Positions 721-43,127 of a stretch of DNA of 43,127 nucleotides are shown here, piece after piece. The stretch lies in IMG/VR virus record IMGVR_UViG_2529293240_000022, one strand, 5' to 3'. The notes under the pieces are model-generated. The model did no database searches. It saw only the letters and a program-made list of their open reading frames with translations, and was not told where the DNA came from. The position numbers were made by a program, and so were the translations under genes. Source of the stretch: a virus. Lineage: Duplodnaviria > Heunggongvirae > Uroviricota > Caudoviricetes. Positions within the stretch are counted from its first letter, which is position 1, and the number at the start of each line of letters is the position of its first letter.

Positions 721-1539
721 TTAAGCAGCCATCTGATGATATTTTTCCCTGAAGGCTGCCGGGGAGATATTCCCCAGACGAGAGTGACGACGCTGACGAT
801 TGTAGAAAATCTCAATGTATTCCCGTATTACTGAGATGGCTTCATCCCGGTTATTAAAACGATAGTGGCTCAGGCTCTCATTTTTCAGCGTTCCCCAGAA
901 GCTTTCCATCGGAGCGTTGTCGTAACAGTTACCTTTACGCGACATTGATGTTTTCAGACCAAACTGCTCCTGTATGACCCGGTAATCGTATGCGCAGTAC
1001 TGTGAACCTCGATCAGAGTGGTGGATTAGCCCGGCAGGTGGGCGCTGGCTCCTGAGCGCCATAAACAGGGCTTTACCTGTCAGCTCTTTTGTCATGCGCT
1101 CTCCCATGGCGTAGCCGACAATTTCGCACGTATAAACATCTTTGATGCCAGCGAGGTACAACCATCCCTCCTGTGTGGCAACATACGTCAGGTCCGCCAC
1201 CCAGACCTGATTTGGTGCTGTAGGAGCGAACGTCTGGTTCAGCAGATTTGGCGCAACTGGCAGATTGTGGTTCGAGTTCGTAGTCGCTCTGAACTTGCGT
1301 TTCTGCTTACAGCGTAGCCTTAGCTCCTTACGAAGACGTGCCAGTCGGTCACGACCAACGATGATGCCATTCTCTGCCAGCTCCGTCTGGAGCCGCCGGG
1401 TTCCATATGTTTCGCGAGTGCGGATATGTGCCACCTTAATCTCCAGTTTTAGCCGCTCATTACTTTGTTTTCTGTCTGAGGGTTCATGCTGTACCCAGTT
1501 GTAATAACCGCTCCTGGATACACCAAATACCTGACACAT
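721..1539 (-). CDS. IS3-family transposase OrfB (DDE integrase core); probably made as an OrfAB fusion by -1 frameshift at 1620-1626
   Basis: 272-aa ORF with conserved integrase-core motifs (HSDRGSQY, CYDNAPMESF). Confidence 0.8.
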   Translation of the reverse strand: MCQVFGVSRSGYYNWVQHEPSDRKQSNERLKLEIKVAHIRTRETYGTRRLQTELAENGIIVGRDRLARLRKELRLRCKQKRKFRATTNSNHNLPVAPNLLNQTFAPTAPNQVWVADLTYVATQEGWLYLAGIKDVYTCEIVGYAMGERMTKELTGKALFMALRSQRPPAGLIHHSDRGSQYCAYDYRVIQEQFGLKTSMSRKGNCYDNAPMESFWGTLKNESLSHYRFNNRDEAISVIREYIEIFYNRQRRHSRLGNISPAAFREKYHQMAA

Positions 1540-1574
1540 CGCGTCAATGGGAAATTGTTGTCGCCATTGTTCGA

Positions 1575-1877
1575 TTAACGCGTATTTTTCAGCGACTCCT
1601 GTGCAAAATACGCTGTTGCTTTTTTTAATATATCTCGCTCAAGGCGAGCTTCATTTAACGCCTTACGCAGTTGCAGAATTTCAGATTCCAGTTCAGCCAC
1701 CGTGCGGGAACCAGGAGTACCGAGCCCTTTTCTGGCGGCGGTAACCCATTGTCCTAAAGTGCCTTCAGGAAGAGATAATCGGGAAGCGCCTTCACTGATC
1801 GAAAGTTGATTTTCAAGAACCGTTCTGACAGCCTCGGCTTTGAACTCTTTAGAGTAACGTTGGGTTTTTCTGCTCAT
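1575..1877 (-). CDS. IS3-family transposase OrfA (HTH), 100 aa
   Basis: translation MSRKTQRYSKEFKAEAV...; ends ...ILKKATAYFAQ... over an A7 run (plus 1620-1626) typical of the -1 frameshift site. Confidence 0.8.
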   Translation of the reverse strand: MSRKTQRYSKEFKAEAVRTVLENQLSISEGASRLSLPEGTLGQWVTAARKGLGTPGSRTVAELESEILQLRKALNEARLERDILKKATAYFAQESLKNTR

Positions 1878-1933: not shown

Positions 1934-2755
1934 CTACCTCAAAGTACCAATAAAGGTTTCTACTTTGCTGTCTTTGAATTTCTCAACAAGCAGATCACGA
2001 AATTCGTTAGCCATTTCTTCCTGCACCGCTTCCAGCTGAATAATGCGCAGAACCAGTACAGGACGATCGCCAGTGATAATGCTGAGGCGTAATTTAAACG
2101 GACGTTCTTTCAGACCTTCAAACGGAACGCATTTAAATTCAAATGCCACTGGCATAATGTCTTTGGTCTTCGCTTCGACAGACTCCATCAGGGAGCGTTT
2201 GCCGCTGAAGTCATTATCTTCAAAATCAGCGGTCTGGTTCGCTTCAATTGTGATTTTACGGATCGCCGCAGCCGCTTTGGTTGCCTGAATGGCGTCACCA
2301 TTAGCATCAAAGCCCACAAGGTAGTCGGCCCAGTCTTCAATCCATTCTGCCAGTGATTTCTGGGAGTTACGCTCGCCGTTAACAGACAACAGGGCAGAGA
2401 ACGGTGCTGTCTTTTTCAGTTTGAGAGTGGCGGTGTTATCTGCGTGACCTGGTTCATCAATAGTACCCAGGTTAAGCACACTGACGGCACGCATATTATC
2501 AGCATCGATAAAGCAGCGGGTGCCTTCATCTGCAAGATCTTTAGAATAACGGGTAAAGTCATCGATGCTGGCAGTGGAAAGCGCACCACGGAAACGGAAG
2601 CGATTTAAATTAAATTTTTCCAGATCATGAATGCGGAAATTCTCAGGCAATGCCACAGCATCGGCACCAATCTTACTGATAATTTCATTAACACCCTGAG
2701 CAGAAATAAGGGCATGGATTTGATTAATTGCGGTTGCGTCTAAGTTCTGAGACAT
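1934..2755 (-). CDS. yfdQ: YfdQ-like prophage protein (DUF2303-type), 273 aa
   Basis: ORF translation; resembles CPS-53 YfdQ from memory; synteny with yfdP/yfdR. Confidence 0.6.
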
Positions 2756-2820
2756 AATAAGTCCTCACTATATTAAGATATTCAGTGATGAGATAAATAA
2801 TCAGTTAATTAAGAACGATA

Positions 2821-3183
2821 TTAATGACCTGCTGCGCGGAGTTTTCCGTCAGGTTCACCGGCAAGAGTCAGTAATTGTCCCTGGTCTTCCTGCAGAATAG
2901 TCAGGCGACCACCGCGATTGACATACATCGGCGTTTCGGTGGTGTCTTCTTCGGAAATTTTCCCGCGGTTAGTCGGACGAACATATGAGAGTTTGTGTTT
3001 TATTTTCACACGGTTCTCATCAAACGGTTCGATTTCCAGATTGAGCGAGACCTTCCCTTTGGTTTTCGTGTTCATCACACCTGAAGCGACTTCACTGAGA
3101 ACAGCGCCGATTTTGGTTTCAAATACGCCGCCGTCCAGCTCCCCGATAAATGCCTGCACATCAGTACTGCGTTCGCTAGCCAT
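2821..3183 (-). CDS. yfdP: YfdP-like small prophage protein, start taken at MASERS
   Basis: internal Met of ORF 2821..3414 preceded by GAGGAG ribosome-binding site; the upstream part of the ORF overlaps a long hairpin and is unlikely to be coding. Confidence 0.55.
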   Translation of the reverse strand: MASERSTDVQAFIGELDGGVFETKIGAVLSEVASGVMNTKTKGKVSLNLEIEPFDENRVKIKHKLSYVRPTNRGKISEEDTTETPMYVNRGGRLTILQEDQGQLLTLAGEPDGKLRAAGH

Positions 3184-3230
3184 TTTGCTGCTCCTCATCA
3201 TATCGACCCTGCAAGGTCGGTTGGTTTCTC

Positions 3231-3319
3231 CACAAAACAGAGAAGAACACCTGCGGTGGCAGCCGCCCGGGTGGATTGGGTTATGAGCCCGTCGTCCGGT
3301 GATGCTCTTCTCTGTTTTG
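3231..3319 (-). promoter_or_regulatory. Long hairpin: 15-bp perfect inverted repeat (ACAAAACAGAGAAGA / TCTTCTCTGTTTTGT) around a GC-rich 59-nt core, in the untranslated early-left leader
   Basis: read directly from sequence: arms at 3231-3245 and 3305-3319. Confidence 0.5.
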
Positions 3320-3791
3320 TAAAAAGAGCGGTACCAGCCGGAAGCAAGTGTACAAACTGGTACCGCCAAAGCAGTGGCTGTTGTGGTGGGCTTGTCACTT
3401 AAGCGTATGGTCAACCTGACAACCCGGTGTCCTCAACGGGGAAGGAATAACCCCGCCATACTTACCGCCGCGCCATTTCGCGGATTACCACAACGCTGAG
3501 AGCACTTAGCCAGTTACGGCACCATACTTTGTCGCGGTTCCATAAATGCCCTCATCGTTGCACCCTGGTCTCTTCCCAGGCGTCAAACCGAATCGCCACG
3601 CTGGTTAGGCGTCTTATCAGCATCATCATTGACTTGCACATTCCGGCTACCTGGTTTGTTTGCCCGAGCAAGGAGTGGATTGTCCCCTTTAACGTCCCCA
3701 GACCGCTAACGACGCATGTGCCATACGCCGTGTTACAACCAAATTTTGTTAGTACCTTGTTTGTTGGTCTGGAAAGAAAGATAAAATGAAG

Positions 3792-3830
3792 TTGCGCATT
3801 ATGCAAGTATTTTTGTTGCGAGATATGCAA
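3792..3830 (-). promoter_or_regulatory. OL-like operator pair overlapping a putative leftward early promoter (pL)
   Basis: two 15-bp sites TTGCGCATTATGCAA (3792-3806) and TTGCGAGATATGCAA (3816-3830); on the minus strand a -35 TTGCAT / -10 TATCTT pair overlaps them. Confidence 0.5.
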
Positions 3831-3840
3831 TTTGATGGGT

Positions 3841-3865
3841 AATGAAAAGCCACCTTCGGGTGGCT
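3841..3865 (-). terminator. Rho-independent terminator downstream of the cI-like gene
   Basis: stem AGCCACC, loop CGAA, stem GGTGGCT followed by TTTCATT on the minus strand. Confidence 0.6.
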
Positions 3866-3885
3866 AATTGATGAGGAGGTAAGGG

Positions 3886-4578
3886 TTAATTGTGTCGCTT
3901 AAGGGTTTGTGACTGGCTGATTAAGACCTTTCCAAAGACCATAAACCGGTGTTCATTTTCGCTGGTAATTCCCCATTCACGATAAATCTGGTTATCAGAA
4001 ATCACCAGTAGTTTGTCAGGTATCATTTGCAGTCGTTTGACATAAATTTTATCATCAAAACCAAATACATAGATACCATCTCCATCAAACTGATTGATAC
4101 TGACATCAACGAAGATGAGATCTCCTGGCTCAATGGTTGGACACATACTGTCCCCACGAACGTTGATAACTTTAATGTGATTTGCTGGCCGTCCGCCAAA
4201 CATCGATACAGCATTATCAGTTCTGTATTCAATGGCATGAATCACATCAATGACATCACCGCCCTGGATAAGGCCATTTCCCGCACTGGCACTGACATCC
4301 AGCATTTCAATACGGAATACATCCTTCACCTGCGCAACATCCTCACTAATACTGTTTTTACATACAGTATTACTTTTGAAGTCTGAGGTAAAGAGATCAG
4401 CAATATCAACACCTAAGCTCCTGGCAATATTACTCAGGGCTTGTTCAGTGAATTGTTTCTGCTTACCTGTTTCCAGGCGTGAGATATTCGCCGCATCCAC
4501 TCCTATTGCTTCAGCGAGATCGGCGATTTTCATGTTCTTCGCCTGGCGAAGTTGTCTGACTCGGTTTCCTATGTTCAT
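3886..4578 (-). CDS. cI: CI-like prophage repressor: N-terminal HTH plus C-terminal S24 (LexA-type) autopeptidase domain
   Basis: 230-aa translation with HTH near the N-terminus, GDSM serine motif and VKRL lysine; divergent from the cro-like gene. Confidence 0.85.
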   Translation of the reverse strand: MNIGNRVRQLRQAKNMKIADLAEAIGVDAANISRLETGKQKQFTEQALSNIARSLGVDIADLFTSDFKSNTVCKNSISEDVAQVKDVFRIEMLDVSASAGNGLIQGGDVIDVIHAIEYRTDNAVSMFGGRPANHIKVINVRGDSMCPTIEPGDLIFVDVSINQFDGDGIYVFGFDDKIYVKRLQMIPDKLLVISDNQIYREWGITSENEHRFMVFGKVLISQSQTLKRHN

Positions 4579-4598
4579 GCGTTTATTACATTTCTTTA

Positions 4599-4662
4599 TT
4601 GCGCGTTAAGCAAATCAACTTGCGCAAAATATTTGCGTGAAATAATATGCCCATCACGCAAT
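4599..4662. promoter_or_regulatory. OR-like operator/promoter region between divergent cI and cro
   Basis: one full operator TTGCGCGTTAAGCAA (4599-4613) plus further TTGCG half-sites; putative pR -35 TTGCGC (4620-4625), 17-bp spacer, -10 TAATAT (4643-4648). Confidence 0.5.
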
Positions 4663-4675
4663 ATGTGGAGGTTAT

Positions 4676-4936
4676 ATGCAATCACCATTACGGAATGTGC
4701 GTAAGGCGCACGGATTTACTTTGCAGCATGTTGCTGCTGGCGTTCAGGTCAATCCAGCGACGCTGAGTCGTATTGAAAGACTGGAACAAATTCCATCTAT
4801 CGATCTTGCAGAACGTCTGGCCAATTTTTTTAAGGGTGAAATCAGCGAAATGCAGATTCTTTATCCGGCACGTTTTCAATCTAGCCAAAACCAGAATGGG
4901 TTTAAACCACAGGAACAGGAGGTAAGCCGTGGGTAA
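4676..4936 (+). CDS. cro: Cro-like HTH regulator, 86 aa
   Basis: XRE-type HTH pattern; position immediately right of the operator region; GGAGG ribosome-binding site. Confidence 0.6.
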   Translation: MQSPLRNVRKAHGFTLQHVAAGVQVNPATLSRIERLEQIPSIDLAERLANFFKGEISEMQILYPARFQSSQNQNGFKPQEQEVSRG

Positions 4937-5480
4937 TCATCACTGGAAAGTGGAAAAACAGCCTGAGTGGTACGTGAAAGCTGTCAGAAAAACTATCGCG
5001 GCGTTGCCGGGGGGTTACGCTGAAGCTGCTGAGTGGCTGGATGTAACAGAGAACGCTTTATTCAACCGCCTTCGTGCAGATGGCGATCAGATTTTCCCGC
5101 TGGGATGGGCAATGATTTTACAGCGTGCTGCTGGCACTCACTACATTGCGGATGCTGTCGCACAGTCTGCTGGTGGGGTGTTCGTATCGCTTCCTGAAAT
5201 TGAGGAAGTAGAGAACGCCGATATAAACCAGCGCCTGCTGGAAGTCATCGAACAGATCGGGAATTACTCAAAGCAGATTCGTTCGGCAATCGAAGATGGG
5301 GTCGTGGAGCCACACGAGCAGACAGCAATTAATGATGAGTTGTATCTGTCAATTTCGAAGCTCCAGGAGCATGCAGCACTGGTCTACAAAATCTTCTGCG
5401 CTCCAGAAAAGAGTGACGCCCGCGAGTGTGCAGCTCCGGGCGTCGTGGCGTTTTGTGTCTGTGGAGAAACTAACGCATGA
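4929..5480 (+). CDS. CII-like / YdaT-like regulatory protein (assignment uncertain), GTG start
   Basis: position directly after cro with 8-nt overlap; AGGAGG site 7 nt upstream of GTG; family call from memory only. Confidence 0.4.
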   Translation: MGNHHWKVEKQPEWYVKAVRKTIAALPGGYAEAAEWLDVTENALFNRLRADGDQIFPLGWAMILQRAAGTHYIADAVAQSAGGVFVSLPEIEEVENADINQRLLEVIEQIGNYSKQIRSAIEDGVVEPHEQTAINDELYLSISKLQEHAALVYKIFCAPEKSDARECAAPGVVAFCVCGETNA

Positions 5481-6628
5481 ACAGTTTAACGGCAAATAAC
5501 CGTTTGTCGCAACAGCTGGTGGTCAGTGTCGCTGAACACCTGTTGTTACGGCATGAATGCAGATTACCAGATCACCTGGCTGTAAGTAACCACAGAGAAC
5601 TTTACCTGACTGTGGGGGGCGAGTTGTGCAGGAACTTAACCGCTGGTTTCGTGACGGAAGAGGGCTTTATGTCCATGTTATTCGTTGGGAGCCAGAAACA
5701 CAGCGCGTTATCTATCTTCGCAAAGACTACCAGCATGAGTGCTTTAGTCCTTTGTGGAAATTCAGGCGTGATTTTGTTGAGTGTGAAGGACCACCAGCAC
5801 ATTGATTCTGCCATTCCGGGACGTTACACTGTTCAGGCACCTTATAAAGCGGGTGCCGGGATTGGCGTCCTGAAATTGATTACTGAGCATAACCGCGCTC
5901 ATGCGGTTTTTTCGTGTCATGAGCATTGCTACGCCCAAATTATGGTGGGGCGTACAGGGCCGACTTCGGTCGGGCCGGGTTCGGTAGTCTCCGGTAACGC
6001 CAACCCTGTACGTCTCACCACCTCTGTGATTGGCGTCCCATGTGGTGAGTTTTCTAAAAAACTGACTACCGGGGCTGTCACTATGACTACTCTCCCAACC
6101 CTCACTCAACCTGAAATTGCCATCGTTGATGGTCAGGCTGTTACTTCATCCCTGGCTGTTGCCAACTTCTTCTCCAAACGTCATGACGATGTACTGAAAA
6201 AGATCCGCACGCTTGAATGCTCCGCATCATTCACTGCCCGCAATTTTTCGGTGAGTGATTACACCGATTGCACAGGCCGCAAACTACCTTGCTATCAAAT
6301 CACCCGCGATGGCTTTGCGTTCCTTGCTATGGGCTTCACTGGTAAACGTGCTGCCCGGTTCAAAGAGGCATACATAAATGCCTTTAACCAGATGGAAAAA
6401 CTGCTTTCAAAGCCATCCACGCTGAGCGATGCCGCAGATAACGCCAGCGTGCTTTACTCCCACCTGTCGGTAATCCACAAGGTCTGGCTGCAGCAGCTTT
6501 ATCCCATGTTGGCAAAAGCCGAATCTCCGCTGGCTGTTAGCTTGTATGACTATATTAATGATGCTTCGGCGCTGGCCTGCCTCATAAATTTGTCGCTGAA
6601 TCCTTCAGAGGTAAGGGGGCGTAAATGA
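5477..6628 (+). CDS. Rha-family phage regulatory protein, copy 1, with unique 105-aa N-terminal extension
   Basis: Rha-type core (KRHDDVL...LPCYQITRDGFAFLAMGFTGKRA...FKEAYINAFNQME); ATGA overlap with upstream gene. Confidence 0.6.
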   Translation: MNSLTANNRLSQQLVVSVAEHLLLRHECRLPDHLAVSNHRELYLTVGGELCRNLTAGFVTEEGFMSMLFVGSQKHSALSIFAKTTSMSALVLCGNSGVILLSVKDHQHIDSAIPGRYTVQAPYKAGAGIGVLKLITEHNRAHAVFSCHEHCYAQIMVGRTGPTSVGPGSVVSGNANPVRLTTSVIGVPCGEFSKKLTTGAVTMTTLPTLTQPEIAIVDGQAVTSSLAVANFFSKRHDDVLKKIRTLECSASFTARNFSVSDYTDCTGRKLPCYQITRDGFAFLAMGFTGKRAARFKEAYINAFNQMEKLLSKPSTLSDAADNASVLYSHLSVIHKVWLQQLYPMLAKAESPLAVSLYDYINDASALACLINLSLNPSEVRGRK

Positions 6629-7527
6629 TCCGGAATATTTTCAAACTGTTTACCAATCGCCACCAGCACATTGATTCTGCCATTCCGGGACGTTACACTG
6701 TTCAGGCACCTTATAAAGCGGGTGCCGGGCGTGGAAACCCGAAATTCAATATAGAGCACAACCGCGCTCATGCGGTTTTTTCGTGTCATGAGCATCGTTA
6801 CGCCCAAATTATGGTGGGGCGTGCAGGGCCAACTTCGGTTGGGCCGGGTTCTATGTTGACCGGTATTTCCACCCCTGTACGTCTCACCACCTATATGGTC
6901 GTGGAAAGCCTTGGTGGTGAGTTCATTGAATTCAACATAGGGGCTGTCACCATGACTACTCTCCCAACCCAATCTCACCCTGAAATCACGATTATCAATG
7001 GTCGCGTTGTCACCACATCTCTTGCAGTAGCTAATTACTTTACTAAACGGCATGAGCGGGTTTTAGATAGAATTAGAAACCTCGAATGTTCCGCTGAATT
7101 TACTGAACACAATTTTGTGTTAAGTGAATACACCGACGCATCAGGCCGCAAACTCCCTTGTTACCAAATCACCCGCGACGGTTTTGCGTTTCTTGCCATG
7201 GGCTTCACGGGTAAACGTGCTGCCCAGTTCAAAGAGGCATACATCAATGCCTTTAACCAGATGGAGAAACAGCTTTCAAATCCCTCTGTACTGAGCGACG
7301 TTGCACATAACGCCAGCGTTCTCTATTCCTACATTTCATCAATTCATCAGGTCTGGCTGCAGCAGCTTTATCCTATGTTGGCAAAAGCCGAATCTCCGCT
7401 GGCTGTTAGCTTGTATGACTATATTAATGATGCTTCGGCACTGGCCTGCCTCATAAATTTGTCGCTGAACCCTTCAGAGGTAAGGGGGCGTAAATGATCC
7501 GGAATATTTTCAAACGGTTTACCAATC
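5792..7527 (+). repeat. Tandem direct duplication, two units of about 866 bp (5792-6657 and 6662-7527), mosaic identity
   Basis: first ~70 nt and last ~140 nt of the units are near-identical while the interior is substantially diverged, with an in-frame 3-nt indel; the 36-nt junction ATGATCCGGAATATTTTCAAAC... occurs at 6625 and 7494. Confidence 0.8.
6625..7497 (+). CDS. Rha-family phage regulatory protein, copy 2 (alternative internal start at 6952)
   Basis: paralogue of copy 1 with identical 5' and 3' ends and a diverged core; ATGA overlap. Confidence 0.65.
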   Translation: MIRNIFKLFTNRHQHIDSAIPGRYTVQAPYKAGAGRGNPKFNIEHNRAHAVFSCHEHRYAQIMVGRAGPTSVGPGSMLTGISTPVRLTTYMVVESLGGEFIEFNIGAVTMTTLPTQSHPEITIINGRVVTTSLAVANYFTKRHERVLDRIRNLECSAEFTEHNFVLSEYTDASGRKLPCYQITRDGFAFLAMGFTGKRAAQFKEAYINAFNQMEKQLSNPSVLSDVAHNASVLYSYISSIHQVWLQQLYPMLAKAESPLAVSLYDYINDASALACLINLSLNPSEVRGRK

Positions 7528-14014: not shown

Positions 14015-14090
14015 GGCCCTTTAGCTCAGTGGTGAGAGCGAGCGACTCATAATCGCCAGGTCGCTGGTTCAAATCCAGCAAGGGCCACCA
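14015..14090 (+). tRNA. ileZ: tRNA with CAU anticodon, tRNA-Ile2 (lysidine)-like, ileZ-like
   Basis: cloverleaf folded by hand: 7-bp acceptor stem GGCCCTT/AAGGGCC, anticodon loop CTCATAA, T-loop TTCAAAT, 3' CCA; closely resembles E. coli ileX. Confidence 0.8.
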
Positions 14091-14099
14091 TATCACATA

Positions 14100-14176
14100 C
14101 CGCCATTAGCTCATCGGGATAGAGCGCCAGCCTTCGAAGCTGGTTGCGCGGGGTTCGAGTCCTCGATGGCGGTCCA
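14100..14176 (+). tRNA. tRNA-Arg (anticodon UCG), argN-like
   Basis: cloverleaf folded by hand: acceptor CCGCCAT/ATGGCGG, anticodon loop CTTCGAA, T-loop TTCGAGT, 3' CCA. Confidence 0.7.
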
Positions 14177-14189
14177 TTATCTGTACCCT

Positions 14190-14266
14190 GCGTTGTTAGC
14201 TCAGCCGGACAGAGCAATTGCCTTCTAAGCAATCGGTCACTGGTTCGAATCCAGTACAACGCGCCA
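14190..14266 (+). tRNA. tRNA-Arg (anticodon UCU), argO-like
   Basis: cloverleaf folded by hand: acceptor GCGTTGT/ACAACGC, anticodon loop CTTCTAA, T-loop TTCGAAT, 3' CCA. Confidence 0.75.
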
Positions 14267-14305: not shown

Positions 14306-14501
14306 AAATGTCTCACAATTCAGACGGTTGACAGTTGTCTGTTTTGCGGGGAGTTTGTTAAAAGAAACTGGCATGGTGAATCCCCCTGTGCGGAGGGGCA
14401 ATCAGCGAGTAGGTATATGGGATAATCGCGGATTCAGGTGCTGGTACTGAATTCACCGGGAGGCACCCGGCACCATGCAATGGCACATAGCGCCACTCTC
14501 C

Positions 14502-14561
14502 AGCCCCTCTCCGGAGGGGCTTTCTTATGGACAAAAAAAGCCCGCGCTGGGAGACGCGGGC
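14502..14561. terminator. Back-to-back hairpins in the tRNA to nanS-p spacer
   Basis: plus-strand AGCCCCTC-TCCG-GAGGGGCT (14502-14521) then TTCTT; minus-strand terminator GCCCGCG...CGCGGGC (14540-14561) preceded by A7. Confidence 0.4.
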
Positions 14562-42543: not shown

Positions 42544-43127
42544 TGGCATTCAGAATGAGTGAACAACCACGGACCATAAAAATTTATAATCTGCTGGCCG
42601 GAACTAATGAATTTATTGGTGAAGGTGACGCATATATTCCGCCTCATACAGGTCTGCCTGCAAACAGTACCGATATTGCACCGTTAGATATTCCGGCAGG
42701 CTTCGTGGCTGTTTTCAACAGTGATGAGTCATCGTGGCATCTCTTTGAAGACCATCGGGGTAAAACGGTTTATGACGTGGCTTCCGGCGACGCGTTATTT
42801 ATTTCTGAACTCGGTCCGTTACCGGAAAATGTTACCTGGTTATCGCCGGAAGGGGAGTTTCAGAAGTGGAACGGCACAGCCTGGGTGAAGGATACGGAAG
42901 CAGAAAAACTGTTCCGGATCCGGGAGGCGGAAGAAACAAAAAACAACCTGATGCAGGTAGCCAGTGAGCATATTGCGCCGCTTCAGGATGCTGCAGATCT
43001 GGAAATTGCAACGGAGGAAGAAACCTCATTGCTGGAAGCCTGGAAAAAGTATCGGGTGTTGCTGAACCGTGTTGATACATCAACTGCACCTGATATTGAG
43101 TGGCCTACGAACCCTGTCAGGGAGTAA
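42543..43127 (+). CDS. tfa: Tail fibre assembly protein (Tfa)
   Basis: 194-aa translation typical of lambdoid Tfa; TAATG overlap with stf. Confidence 0.8.

Follow-up and report, generated by a model that had tools for sequence, protein, structure and literature searches.

A leader of four conserved structured-RNA modules, including a dicF-type element, between the early-left promoter and yfdP of a lambdoid Escherichia coli prophage

Introduction

What does a lambdoid prophage carry at the position where phage lambda has nutL and N, if no N-like gene is found there? This question is raised by a 43,127-nucleotide (nt) stretch of DNA (IMG/VR record IMGVR_UViG_2529293240_000022; the whole stretch is hereafter called the window), which is a lambdoid Escherichia coli prophage. 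In the window, 702 bases (3184-3885) separate the stop codon of the cI-like repressor gene from the start codon of yfdP. As in lambda, this region, the leader, lies between the early-left promoter (PL) and the first leftward gene. A sequence-only reading had described it as free of credible open reading frames (ORFs) and as carrying a perfect inverted repeat, and had offered put-like antitermination, a leader processed by ribonuclease (RNase) III or a prophage small RNA as its possible roles.

We report that the leader consists, mosaic-like, of four conserved modules of structured RNA, which we call, in the order of transcription, module U, element A, T1 and the inverted-repeat hairpin (Table 1). 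We establish its homology, its architecture, the covarying RNA structures and the lack of conserved ORFs. The leader is probably a non-coding, modular small-RNA locus of the DicF/STnc100 type within the 5′ end of the PL transcript, with T1 attenuating yfdPQR and the hairpin acting as an RNase III-type element.

Results

Element A matches the segment upstream of DicF

Positions 3388-3494 of the leader (107 nt) were found to match, with 97% identity, the sequence that immediately precedes dicF in the Qin prophage of E. coli K-12, between ydfC and dicB. When the leader was compared with the complete E. coli genomes by megablast, these 107 nt were its only match in K-12. The homologous segment of Qin lies 26-132 nt upstream of mature DicF. 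DicF of Qin occurs as a 190-nt species, the 5′ end of which needs RNase III, and as a 53-nt species that needs RNase E, both being derived from the transcript of a repressed promoter (PMC10448788). As the difference between the RNA lengths (190 - 53 nt), by which alone we place the K-12 RNase III site, puts the 5′ end of the long form ∼6 nt before the conserved block, the latter appears from its position in the sequence to be the body of the 190-nt long DicF.

In the leader, this block belongs to element A, a 115-nt RNA with a cloverleaf-like fold. We compared 26 distinct copies of it over 36 base pairs, and observed that 92% of the cells were paired and that 13 pairs had changed on both sides. 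None of 500 shuffles was as good, and slid partners were only 30-54% paired. The search patterns had fixed part of the H3 loop and of the J1/2 strand, so the invariance at these places and the single covarying pair of the possible pseudoknot are weak evidence. The covariance model of element A (R1) scored a single copy in the window, at 159 bits; the second-best hit reached 8.9 bits. Element A, like T1 and the inverted-repeat hairpin, had no match in Rfam, either in a scan of the window at the gathering thresholds or at E <= 10 on 2700-4700.

Element A is present in phages P1 and P7, Salmonella phage F1055, pPE4 and many IMG/VR contigs, as well as in genomes of E. albertii, E. ruysiae, Shigella, Citrobacter, Trabulsiella, Erwinia tracheiphila, Izhakiella and Serratia symbiotica. 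The record named 'Actinobacillus phage vB_Apl-pPE4' (PP818812.1) has a copy that is 84.5% identical, with the 3′ cassette duplicated in tandem. It also carries genes that are typical of E. coli Rac/Qin-like prophages (dicA, ydaT, kil and exodeoxyribonuclease VIII), and its Actinobacillus host label may be doubtful.

The Qin dicF locus (RF00039) and the leader have further features in common. A hairpin with a U-run follows within ∼25 nt in both, and T1 can be aligned with the DicF terminator, although the common parts are only UUUGGCGGUA.CAGUUU and CCGC.CUUUUUA. Both loci belong to a repressor-controlled leftward operon of a lambdoid prophage, the later genes of which require read-through. On the other hand, the 3′ cassette of the window differs in sequence and is devoid of the UUUCUGGUGAC 5′ arm. 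The locations are also different: in the window, the locus occupies an ORF-free leader immediately past PL, with module U ahead of it, whereas the Qin locus follows three small genes, ydfABC.

In the P1 record (NC_005856), the copy of element A is labelled 'dicF-like region'. In the ban operon of P1 and P7, element A is 77-82% identical to that of the window, and H2, H3, P2 and the pseudoknot show compensatory changes. It is located ∼45 nt past the C1-controlled Pban promoter (Pban/Op72), and an intrinsic terminator comes after it. P1 has module U as well, just upstream of ban. Unlike in the leader, the two modules of P1 are ∼2 kb apart and in the reverse order, with tRNA genes and tciABC between them, and the terminator is a plain UUCG hairpin without a small-RNA-like body.

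T1 is one of several cassettes that follow element A

T1 sits 12 nt past element A. It contains a perfect 10-bp inverted repeat (3328-3337/3357-3366) with a U-run, which the sequence-only reading had overlooked, and folds with -22 kcal/mol (z = -3.7). T1 is an intrinsic terminator at the position of DicF and would provide the 3′ end and the body of a small RNA. A script that looked for a hairpin abutting a T-run 63-145 nt downstream found this arrangement behind element A in 82 of 85 distinct contexts, and the remaining three were canonical DicF. As element A stays constant while the hairpin body that follows it comes in at least eight versions, that is, as at least eight alternative 3′ cassettes, we concluded that the conserved unit is a body (element A) plus a swappable terminator cassette.

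The cassette of the window is not of the DicF family. The DicF covariance model (family threshold, 48 bits) gave no match in 2700-4700 even at E <= 10, whereas the K-12 DicF control scored 76.7 bits. We also found no pairing of T1 with ftsZ. RNAduplex runs against -70 to +30 of ftsZ, a crude measure in which intramolecular structure is ignored, gave z = +0.6 to +1.1 for T1 as against -1.76 for DicF (8 of 200 shuffles as good). ftsZ is, hence, unsupported as a target of a T1 RNA, its pairing being no better than random.

The 3′ arm and the U-run of T1 contain a string, CGCUCUUUUUACAA (3319-3332, minus strand), that resembles the boxA of lambda (CGCUCUUA) and of the rrn operons (UGCUCUUUAACAA). 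As the relatives read CCGCCCUUUUUA here, the likeness is probably due to chance.

Module U and the question of RNA-based antitermination

Module U, the promoter-proximal module, begins ∼45 nt past the presumed start of PL transcription. It is present as a single copy in the window (nhmmer, 3545-3735, E = 2.7e-42) and is 82% identical in phages phiV10 and TL-2011b. Its 19-mer, GGTAGCCGGAATGTGCAAG, matches >120 IMG/VR contigs, a number that is a lower bound. There are 41 variants of it below 93% identity, and RNAalifold on 20 of the variants gave 29 pairs, eight of which showed compensatory change. Scans of the window and of 11 diverse loci with module U showed it to be absent from Rfam. A good sigma-70 promoter lies 5-45 nt upstream of it in several unrelated immunity types; immunity types other than that of the window have a consensus promoter (TTGACA-17-CATAAT) at the distance that the presumed PL has here, and in some contigs an ORF follows immediately behind it.

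In P1, the copy of module U is unannotated and lies at 4782-4968, between tRNA-Ile and ban. Past it, at ∼5000-5055 and just before the ribosome-binding site of ban, there is AUUUUCUGGUGAUGA, which resembles the 5′ arm of DicF, UUUUCUGGUGACG. Among the module-U variants, only three IMG/VR contigs (L171, L183 and L216) have a small hairpin and GCUCUUUAAYAA, the consensus rrn-type boxA, directly after module U, ∼120-130 nt past the 19-mer. This sequence suggests that some members of the leader family may carry Nus-factor antitermination signals.

An alternative to the small-RNA locus is that the leader RNA drives processive antitermination. Module U and/or element A would act in cis in the manner of put, or the boxA-like string of T1 would recruit NusB/NusE as in rrn, and transcription from PL would pass T1 and the later terminators without N. 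Between PL and yfdP there is indeed no N-like ORF (no Pfam match and no PHROGs match of known function). The related lambdoid phage LLS, the repressor of which is closest to that of mEp460_4F5, is reported to have no N homologue, and a put-type mechanism was guessed for it (PMC12315714). The put elements consist of two stem-loops (∼70 nt), and putL lies shortly downstream of PL in HK022 (PMC9378689). Like put, the leader is a cis-encoded, promoter-proximal structured RNA in the early operon of an N-less lambdoid phage, upstream of terminators. The short distance of module U from the transcription start in unrelated promoter and immunity types fits this alternative, as do the strong terminator that always stands behind element A and ahead of the early genes (the P1 ban operon included), the near-invariant loop sequences, which suggest binding of a conserved host machine, and the rrn-type boxA of the three contigs.

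However, the comparisons did not bear it out. The profiles of module U and element A found nothing at the put sites when searched against the HK022 immunity region with putL and putR (nhmmer; best E > 2, outside put sites), and homology to HK022 put was dropped as only short common strings (ACGGCG…CAUGCGUCG) were seen. The leader modules, of 200 nt and 115 nt, differ from put in size and topology. Each module has one copy in the 43-kb window and none in the operon of the early-right promoter, PR (covariance model with filters off; nhmmer), as against the two sites of HK022, putL after PL and putR after PR. In 25 of 106 contexts a genuine tRNA-Arg takes the place of element A, with unchanged flanks and with a terminator of the same kind behind it (see below). 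Moreover, the phiV10-like cassette lies between the terminase and portal genes, not at an early promoter, the Qin element A is far from its promoter, behind ydfABC, and the boxA-like string is not conserved. On these grounds we regard antitermination by the leader as unlikely.

The leader also differs from the nutL/N leader of lambda in having neither an N-like ORF nor a recognisable boxB-type hairpin; the likeness in boxA is confined to the unconserved CGCUCUU at 3326-3332. The N leader of lambda also contains an RNase III site. Thus, of the roles proposed earlier, the RNase III-processed leader and the prophage small RNA gained support from the homology to dicF, whereas put-like antitermination was not supported by the comparisons that we ran.

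A bolder form of the antitermination proposal is that module U, alone or with element A, represents a new class of RNA that renders RNA polymerase termination-resistant in cis, a functional analogue of HK022 put with neither its sequence nor its fold. The large group of N-less lambdoid phages of the mEp460, cdtI, Stx2c and SfII types and the P1 ban operon would use it to pass the terminator that invariably follows, and the terminated fraction would yield the DicF/STnc100-type small RNA. We offer this as a speculation that is rather unlikely to hold.

Element A shares its slot with tRNA-Arg and STnc100-like RNAs

The junction between module U and element A is conserved whichever element comes next. 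By analogy with K-12, RNase III would be expected to cut at its 3′ end, ∼5-6 nt before element A. Phages phiV10, TL-2011b and O157 typing phage 10 are 82% identical to the window upstream of element A, through …GCTAAGTGCTCTCAGCGTTGTGG. In these phiV10-type phages, a genuine tRNA-Arg(UCU) begins at GTGGCAT, where the closing stem of element A, GUUGUGG, starts, and a T1-family terminator comes next. The same junction precedes the other occupants of this slot. By rough counts with regular expressions, the 106 distinct contexts behind module U contain tRNA-Arg in 25, element A in 20, 'GUGAAUGCG' (an STnc100-like RNA) in 21 and a fourth type (GUGAAUAAGGC) in three; the other 37 have something else or nothing.

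In E. coli QA-1986 83, the slot is occupied by an STnc100-like body that has the closing stem in common, and an identical T1, the hairpin and yfdP follow. This body and T1 together cover the full Rfam model of STnc100 (RF02076) with 45 bits, against a cut-off of 47; the sister locus L149, with the same T1, scores 45.1 bits over the full model. As the STnc100-like body and T1 match the whole model, 'body plus T1' is the architecture of a recognised small-RNA family. STnc100 has the same organisation as the leader unit, a structured body shut by a long-range stem (…UGGUG…CACCA…) and then a terminator hairpin, ∼200 nt in total, and in other E. coli an STnc100-like body takes the place of element A while T1, the hairpin and yfdP behind it are the same. 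Element A itself is different: it has no sequence or covariance-model similarity to STnc100, and no STnc100 match was found in the leader. PasD has been described as a structural relative of STnc100 (bioRxiv 10.64898/2026.05.13.724894). STnc100 and Pas loci have been described from the late region, close to Q and the lysis genes, and not from a PL leader, and we rejected the Pas small RNAs of this 2026 preprint as the identity of the leader.

The window has an STnc100 of its own at 14342-14532 (plus strand, 139 bits), 76 nt past three tRNA genes (Met-CAT, Arg-TCG and Arg-TCT; 14015-14266). The tRNA-Arg(UCU) of this cluster has the same identity as the slot tRNA of the phiV10-type phages. In K-12 Qin (L001, 3717-3926, minus strand), a weak full-length match to STnc100 (34 bits, E = 1.5e-5) lies between DicF and dicB, so two 'body plus terminator' units may stand in tandem there.

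The exchange of element A for a tRNA bears on another alternative, tRNA mimicry, in which the slot RNAs are matured by the tRNA enzymes RNase P and RNase E, DicF or T1 is a product of the tRNA-trailer type, and the mimic serves as a decoy or in another role connected with tRNA. The exact start of tRNA-Arg(UCU) at the closing stem and the slot counts of tRNA-Arg, element A and STnc100-like bodies are in line with it, and so are the cloverleaf-like four-way junction of element A, the occurrence of element A and module U within the tRNA-rich ban operon of P1, and the position of the window's STnc100 behind three tRNAs. The phage regulatory RNAs C4 of P1/P7 and CI of P4 are matured by RNase P, and in small RNAs of the 3′ETS-leuZ type a tRNA trailer is released by RNase E. 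The latter, like the leader unit, place a small RNA between a (t)RNA-like structured element and the intrinsic terminator of the operon; the 5′ end of K-12 DicF is made by RNase E, and the sister phages have a real tRNA upstream. In the window, however, the upstream element is no tRNA, and nothing points to a sponge function. ARAGORN called no gene in 2800-4200, and the Rfam tRNA model gave nothing at E <= 10. In element A, the consensus of a T-loop or D-loop is missing, as is a conserved CCA or discriminator past the closing stem, and the 5′ strand of this stem is absent in L020, L068, L138 and pPE4. The long K-12 species owes its 5′ end to RNase III and not to RNase P. The shared flanks, finally, could be mere recombination joints of phage mosaicism. 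We, therefore, consider tRNA mimicry quite unlikely and retain the DicF/STnc100-type locus as our reading of the slot.

The leader does not appear to be coding

In agreement with the earlier view that 3184-3885 holds no credible ORF, the minus-strand ORFs either start with GTG/TTG inside the structured elements or have <=29 amino acids from an ATG, and Pfam had no match for any ORF of the leader. Two PHROGs families of unknown function match opposite strands of the same leader DNA, phrog_33599 the minus and phrog_3651 the plus strand, which points to over-annotation of conserved non-coding DNA.

Could a small protein or decayed coding DNA, nevertheless, explain the conservation? The minus frame 3198-3398 and the plus frame 3256-3402 are both called by annotators in other phages and both have the PHROGs families mentioned above. 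In some E. coli genomes, PGAP has placed a 'hypothetical protein, frameshifted' upstream of yfdP, and AGGAG-N-ATG/GTG is found within the longer T1 hairpin of Erwinia, Izhakiella, Trabulsiella, Serratia and F1055. The start codon is inconsistent, however, E. coli versions starting only with GTG/TTG inside element A or T1. The minus frame is not kept in diverged homologues, being shifted or stopped early in L044, L145, L147 and L148, and the plus frame meets an in-frame TAA/TAG in the H3 loop of the window, K-12 and P1 types. Length differences in the interior of the hairpin are not multiples of three, the conservation is apparent on both strands and in two frames, as a nucleotide-level constraint yields, and the stems are maintained by compensatory changes. 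In module U, no frame on either strand is consistently open among the 41 variants. A coding explanation is, thus, very improbable. A conserved small protein spanning T1 and the hairpin was rejected on the frame analysis, and the antisense ORFs called in mEp460, cdtI and F1055 on the in-frame stops in most variants and on the covariation.

The inverted-repeat hairpin is conserved as RNA

The 15-bp perfect inverted repeat that had drawn attention to this leader is real, although its coordinates had been given as 3231-3245/3305-3319, one base off; the arms are at 3232-3246 and 3306-3320. They extend to 25-nt arms with 84% complementarity. By our estimate, the chance expectation of a perfect 15-bp repeat of this kind (within 100 nt, in 700 nt of sequence) is ∼7e-5. 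The RNA (89-97 nt) begins 1 nt past the U-run of T1 and forms a stem of 20-23 bp (-47.3 kcal/mol, z = -6.2; none of 200 shuffles was equally stable). The stem is retained in Citrobacter, Salmonella phage F1055, Erwinia, Izhakiella and Serratia. In nine distinct homologous pairs of arms, 95% of the cells were paired and three pairs showed compensatory change (A-U to C-G, A-U to U-A and G-C to A-U), and G-U pairs were tolerated (UG:6, GU:2 and similar). The interior differs in length and sequence among the relatives, while the arms are constant. The comparison of homologous sequences, therefore, gives modest but consistent support to an RNA hairpin at 3232-3320. As its stem is long enough for RNase III, the hairpin is probably an RNase III-type double-stranded RNA element in the 5′ untranslated region (UTR) of yfdP. 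Although real and conserved, it is the least distinctive of the four modules. Closer to yfdP, the region of the small hairpin CGACCUUGCAGGGUCG folds with -9.6 kcal/mol, no better than shuffles, and the relatives have a different small hairpin there.

It is scarcely credible that the repeat works instead as DNA (a protein-binding palindrome or a site of recombination or inversion), to which its nearly perfect 20-bp arms and a flipped ∼70-bp interior between conserved arms in Serratia symbiotica, relative to all other homologues, might point, since this is one inversion only, in the prophage of a decaying endosymbiont where yfdP is truncated too, since the tolerated G-U pairs suit RNA and not DNA symmetry, and since no recombinase gene adjoins in the window. 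The inverted interior (∼70 nt) was seen in JAMDYG010000001.1 (L136; minus strand, ∼1430-1540 of the reverse complement), upstream of the truncated yfdP. A single recombination event between the arms, in a prophage undergoing decay, could explain it.

Setting of the leader and other features of the window

The features of the locus are collected in Table 1. The pattern TTGCGN5WGCAA is matched exactly by both of the left-operator (OL)-type sites, in agreement with the OL-like operators described for 3792-3830 before, and a third exact match lies at 4599-4613, between the repressor and cro genes. PL transcription would start near 3785-3790. An intrinsic terminator that had also been overlooked (fold of -11.8 kcal/mol, z = -4.4) follows the repressor gene; the annotation of phage SfII has the same terminator, which keeps the repressor transcript apart from PL. 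Because the operator pair and the repressor terminator precede a gene-free stretch, 'early-left leader' is a fair description of 3184-3885. A GC-rich block that had been pointed out in the leader is so only mildly, as 3160-3700 has 52-56% GC compared to 34-45% in the immunity region.

Table 1. Positions of the leader modules and neighbouring features in the window
Feature	Position	Strand	Description or basis
Module U	3545-3745	minus	∼200-nt conserved structured RNA, promoter-proximal; core motifs CGGCGUAUGGCACAUGCGUCG, GGUAGCCGGAAUGUGCAAG, CCUGG-GAAGAGA-CCAGG
Junction (5′ flank of the slot)	3495-3544	minus	…CAACGAUGAGGGCAUU…GGCUAAGUGCUCUCAGC
Element A	3380-3494	minus	homology and covariation
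Element A, stem P1	3487-3494/3380-3387	minus
Element A, H1	3468-3483	minus
Element A, P2	3464-3467/3425-3428	minus	encloses H2
Element A, H2	3437-3455	minus
Element A, H3	3390-3424	minus
Element A, possible pseudoknot	3456-3461/3405-3410	minus	GUAUGG with CCAUAC of the H3 loop
T1	3321-3367	minus	13-bp hairpin GGCGGUACCAGUU…GGCUGGUACCGCU, 15-nt pyrimidine-rich loop, then C-UUUUU; repeat scan and fold
Inverted-repeat hairpin	3232-3320	minus	89 nt; 20-bp stem ACAAAACAGAGAAGAGCAUC / GGUGUUCUUCUCUGUUUUGU, branched interior; repeat scan, folds and homologue comparison
yfdP proximal 5′ UTR	3184-3231	minus	small hairpin CGACCUUGCAGGGUCG 3204-3219; Shine-Dalgarno GAGGAG 3192-3197; ATG 3183; sequence
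yfdP start codon ATG	3183	minus	gene 2821-3183
Leftward genes yfdR, IS3, yfdQ, yfdP	yfdR 1-564; yfdP 2821-3183	minus
OL-type operators	3792-3806; 3816-3830		TTGCGCATTATGCAA; TTGCGAGATATGCAA; direct repeat; overlap the presumed PL
Repressor-gene intrinsic terminator	3841-3865	minus	AGCCACC-CGAA-GGUGGCU then UUUCAUU; terminator scan; 20 nt past the repressor stop codon
End of cI-like repressor ORF	3886	minus	gene 3886-4578; S24 peptidase domain
cro-like gene	4676-4936	plus

The closest complete genome is that of E. coli AZ 187, 99.1% identical across the leader, which is without annotation there. By megablast, part of the leader was found in 4786 of 5426 complete E. coli genomes and >=80% of it in ∼1000 of them. 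It is also present in phages mEp460, cdtI, Ayreon and 2H10 and in Stx2c phages.

Within the leftward operon fed by the leader, an IS3-family element (721-1877, minus strand; orfA 1575-1877, orfB 721-1539) splits yfdR from yfdQ. Elsewhere in the window there are two tandem pairs of isrK and C4-antisense RNA (5837-6025 and 6706-6894, plus strand), each ahead of a Rha/antirepressor-like frame and within the ORFs 5477-6628 and 6625-7497, respectively; these pairs are a duplicated antirepressor control cassette of the P1 immI type, and the two ORFs are probably over-extended at their N-termini. A full-length IS009 RNA match (225 bits) lies near the right end of the window (42886-43084, plus strand).

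Discussion

If the leader is a small-RNA locus of the DicF/STnc100 type, we envisage its action as follows. When the repressor leaves the operators, RNA polymerase would transcribe leftward, and in the nascent RNA module U would fold first and element A next. A fraction of the transcription would end at T1. By analogy with Qin, RNase III would cut at the foot of the closing stem of element A and release a stable RNA of ∼175 nt made of element A and T1, from which RNase E may trim a ∼50-nt hairpin RNA. The released RNA would act in trans as a small RNA, with its specificity in the swappable 3′ cassette, which in the window is not DicF and not directed to ftsZ. Read-through of T1 would bring the 20-bp hairpin into the transcript, and this is likely a second RNase III site that would set the 5′ end, the stability or the translation of the yfdPQR message.

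Several points weigh against this scheme. All the processing steps are carried over by analogy from the K-12 homologue, where the exact RNase III site is itself placed by arithmetic on the RNA lengths. The absence of T1 from the DicF family is another, and, as the loop of T1 varies between relatives, T1 may be a terminator alone, without a trans-acting seed. The conservation of the element A loops and of module U exceeds the needs of a processing signal and hints at an additional function. The model, moreover, leaves unexplained how enough transcription passes a terminator of -22 kcal/mol to express yfdPQR.

That a dicF-like element exists outside Qin is already known from the P1 annotation, and the long DicF species has been described. 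The fold and the spread of element A, the organisation in cassettes and a slot, module U and this variant of T1 appear to be uncatalogued in Rfam and in the literature that we examined. DicF is a textbook prophage small RNA, and the ∼110 nt ahead of it, treated as mere precursor, are now seen to be a conserved, covarying fold. Element A is found from E. coli to Erwinia and in P1, always before a cassette-swapped terminator, and is interchangeable with a tRNA or an STnc100-like RNA. This brings DicF, STnc100 and PasD into one modular 'body plus terminator' family, and the swapping of cassettes suggests, as a concrete hypothesis, a way in which such RNAs could acquire new specificities. Module U is a widespread RNA of ∼200 nt, found at the 5′ ends of early transcripts in numerous temperate phages of enterobacteria, the Stx2c and cdt converting phages among them, and the leader is the obvious place to seek how N-less lambdoid phages get past their early terminators.

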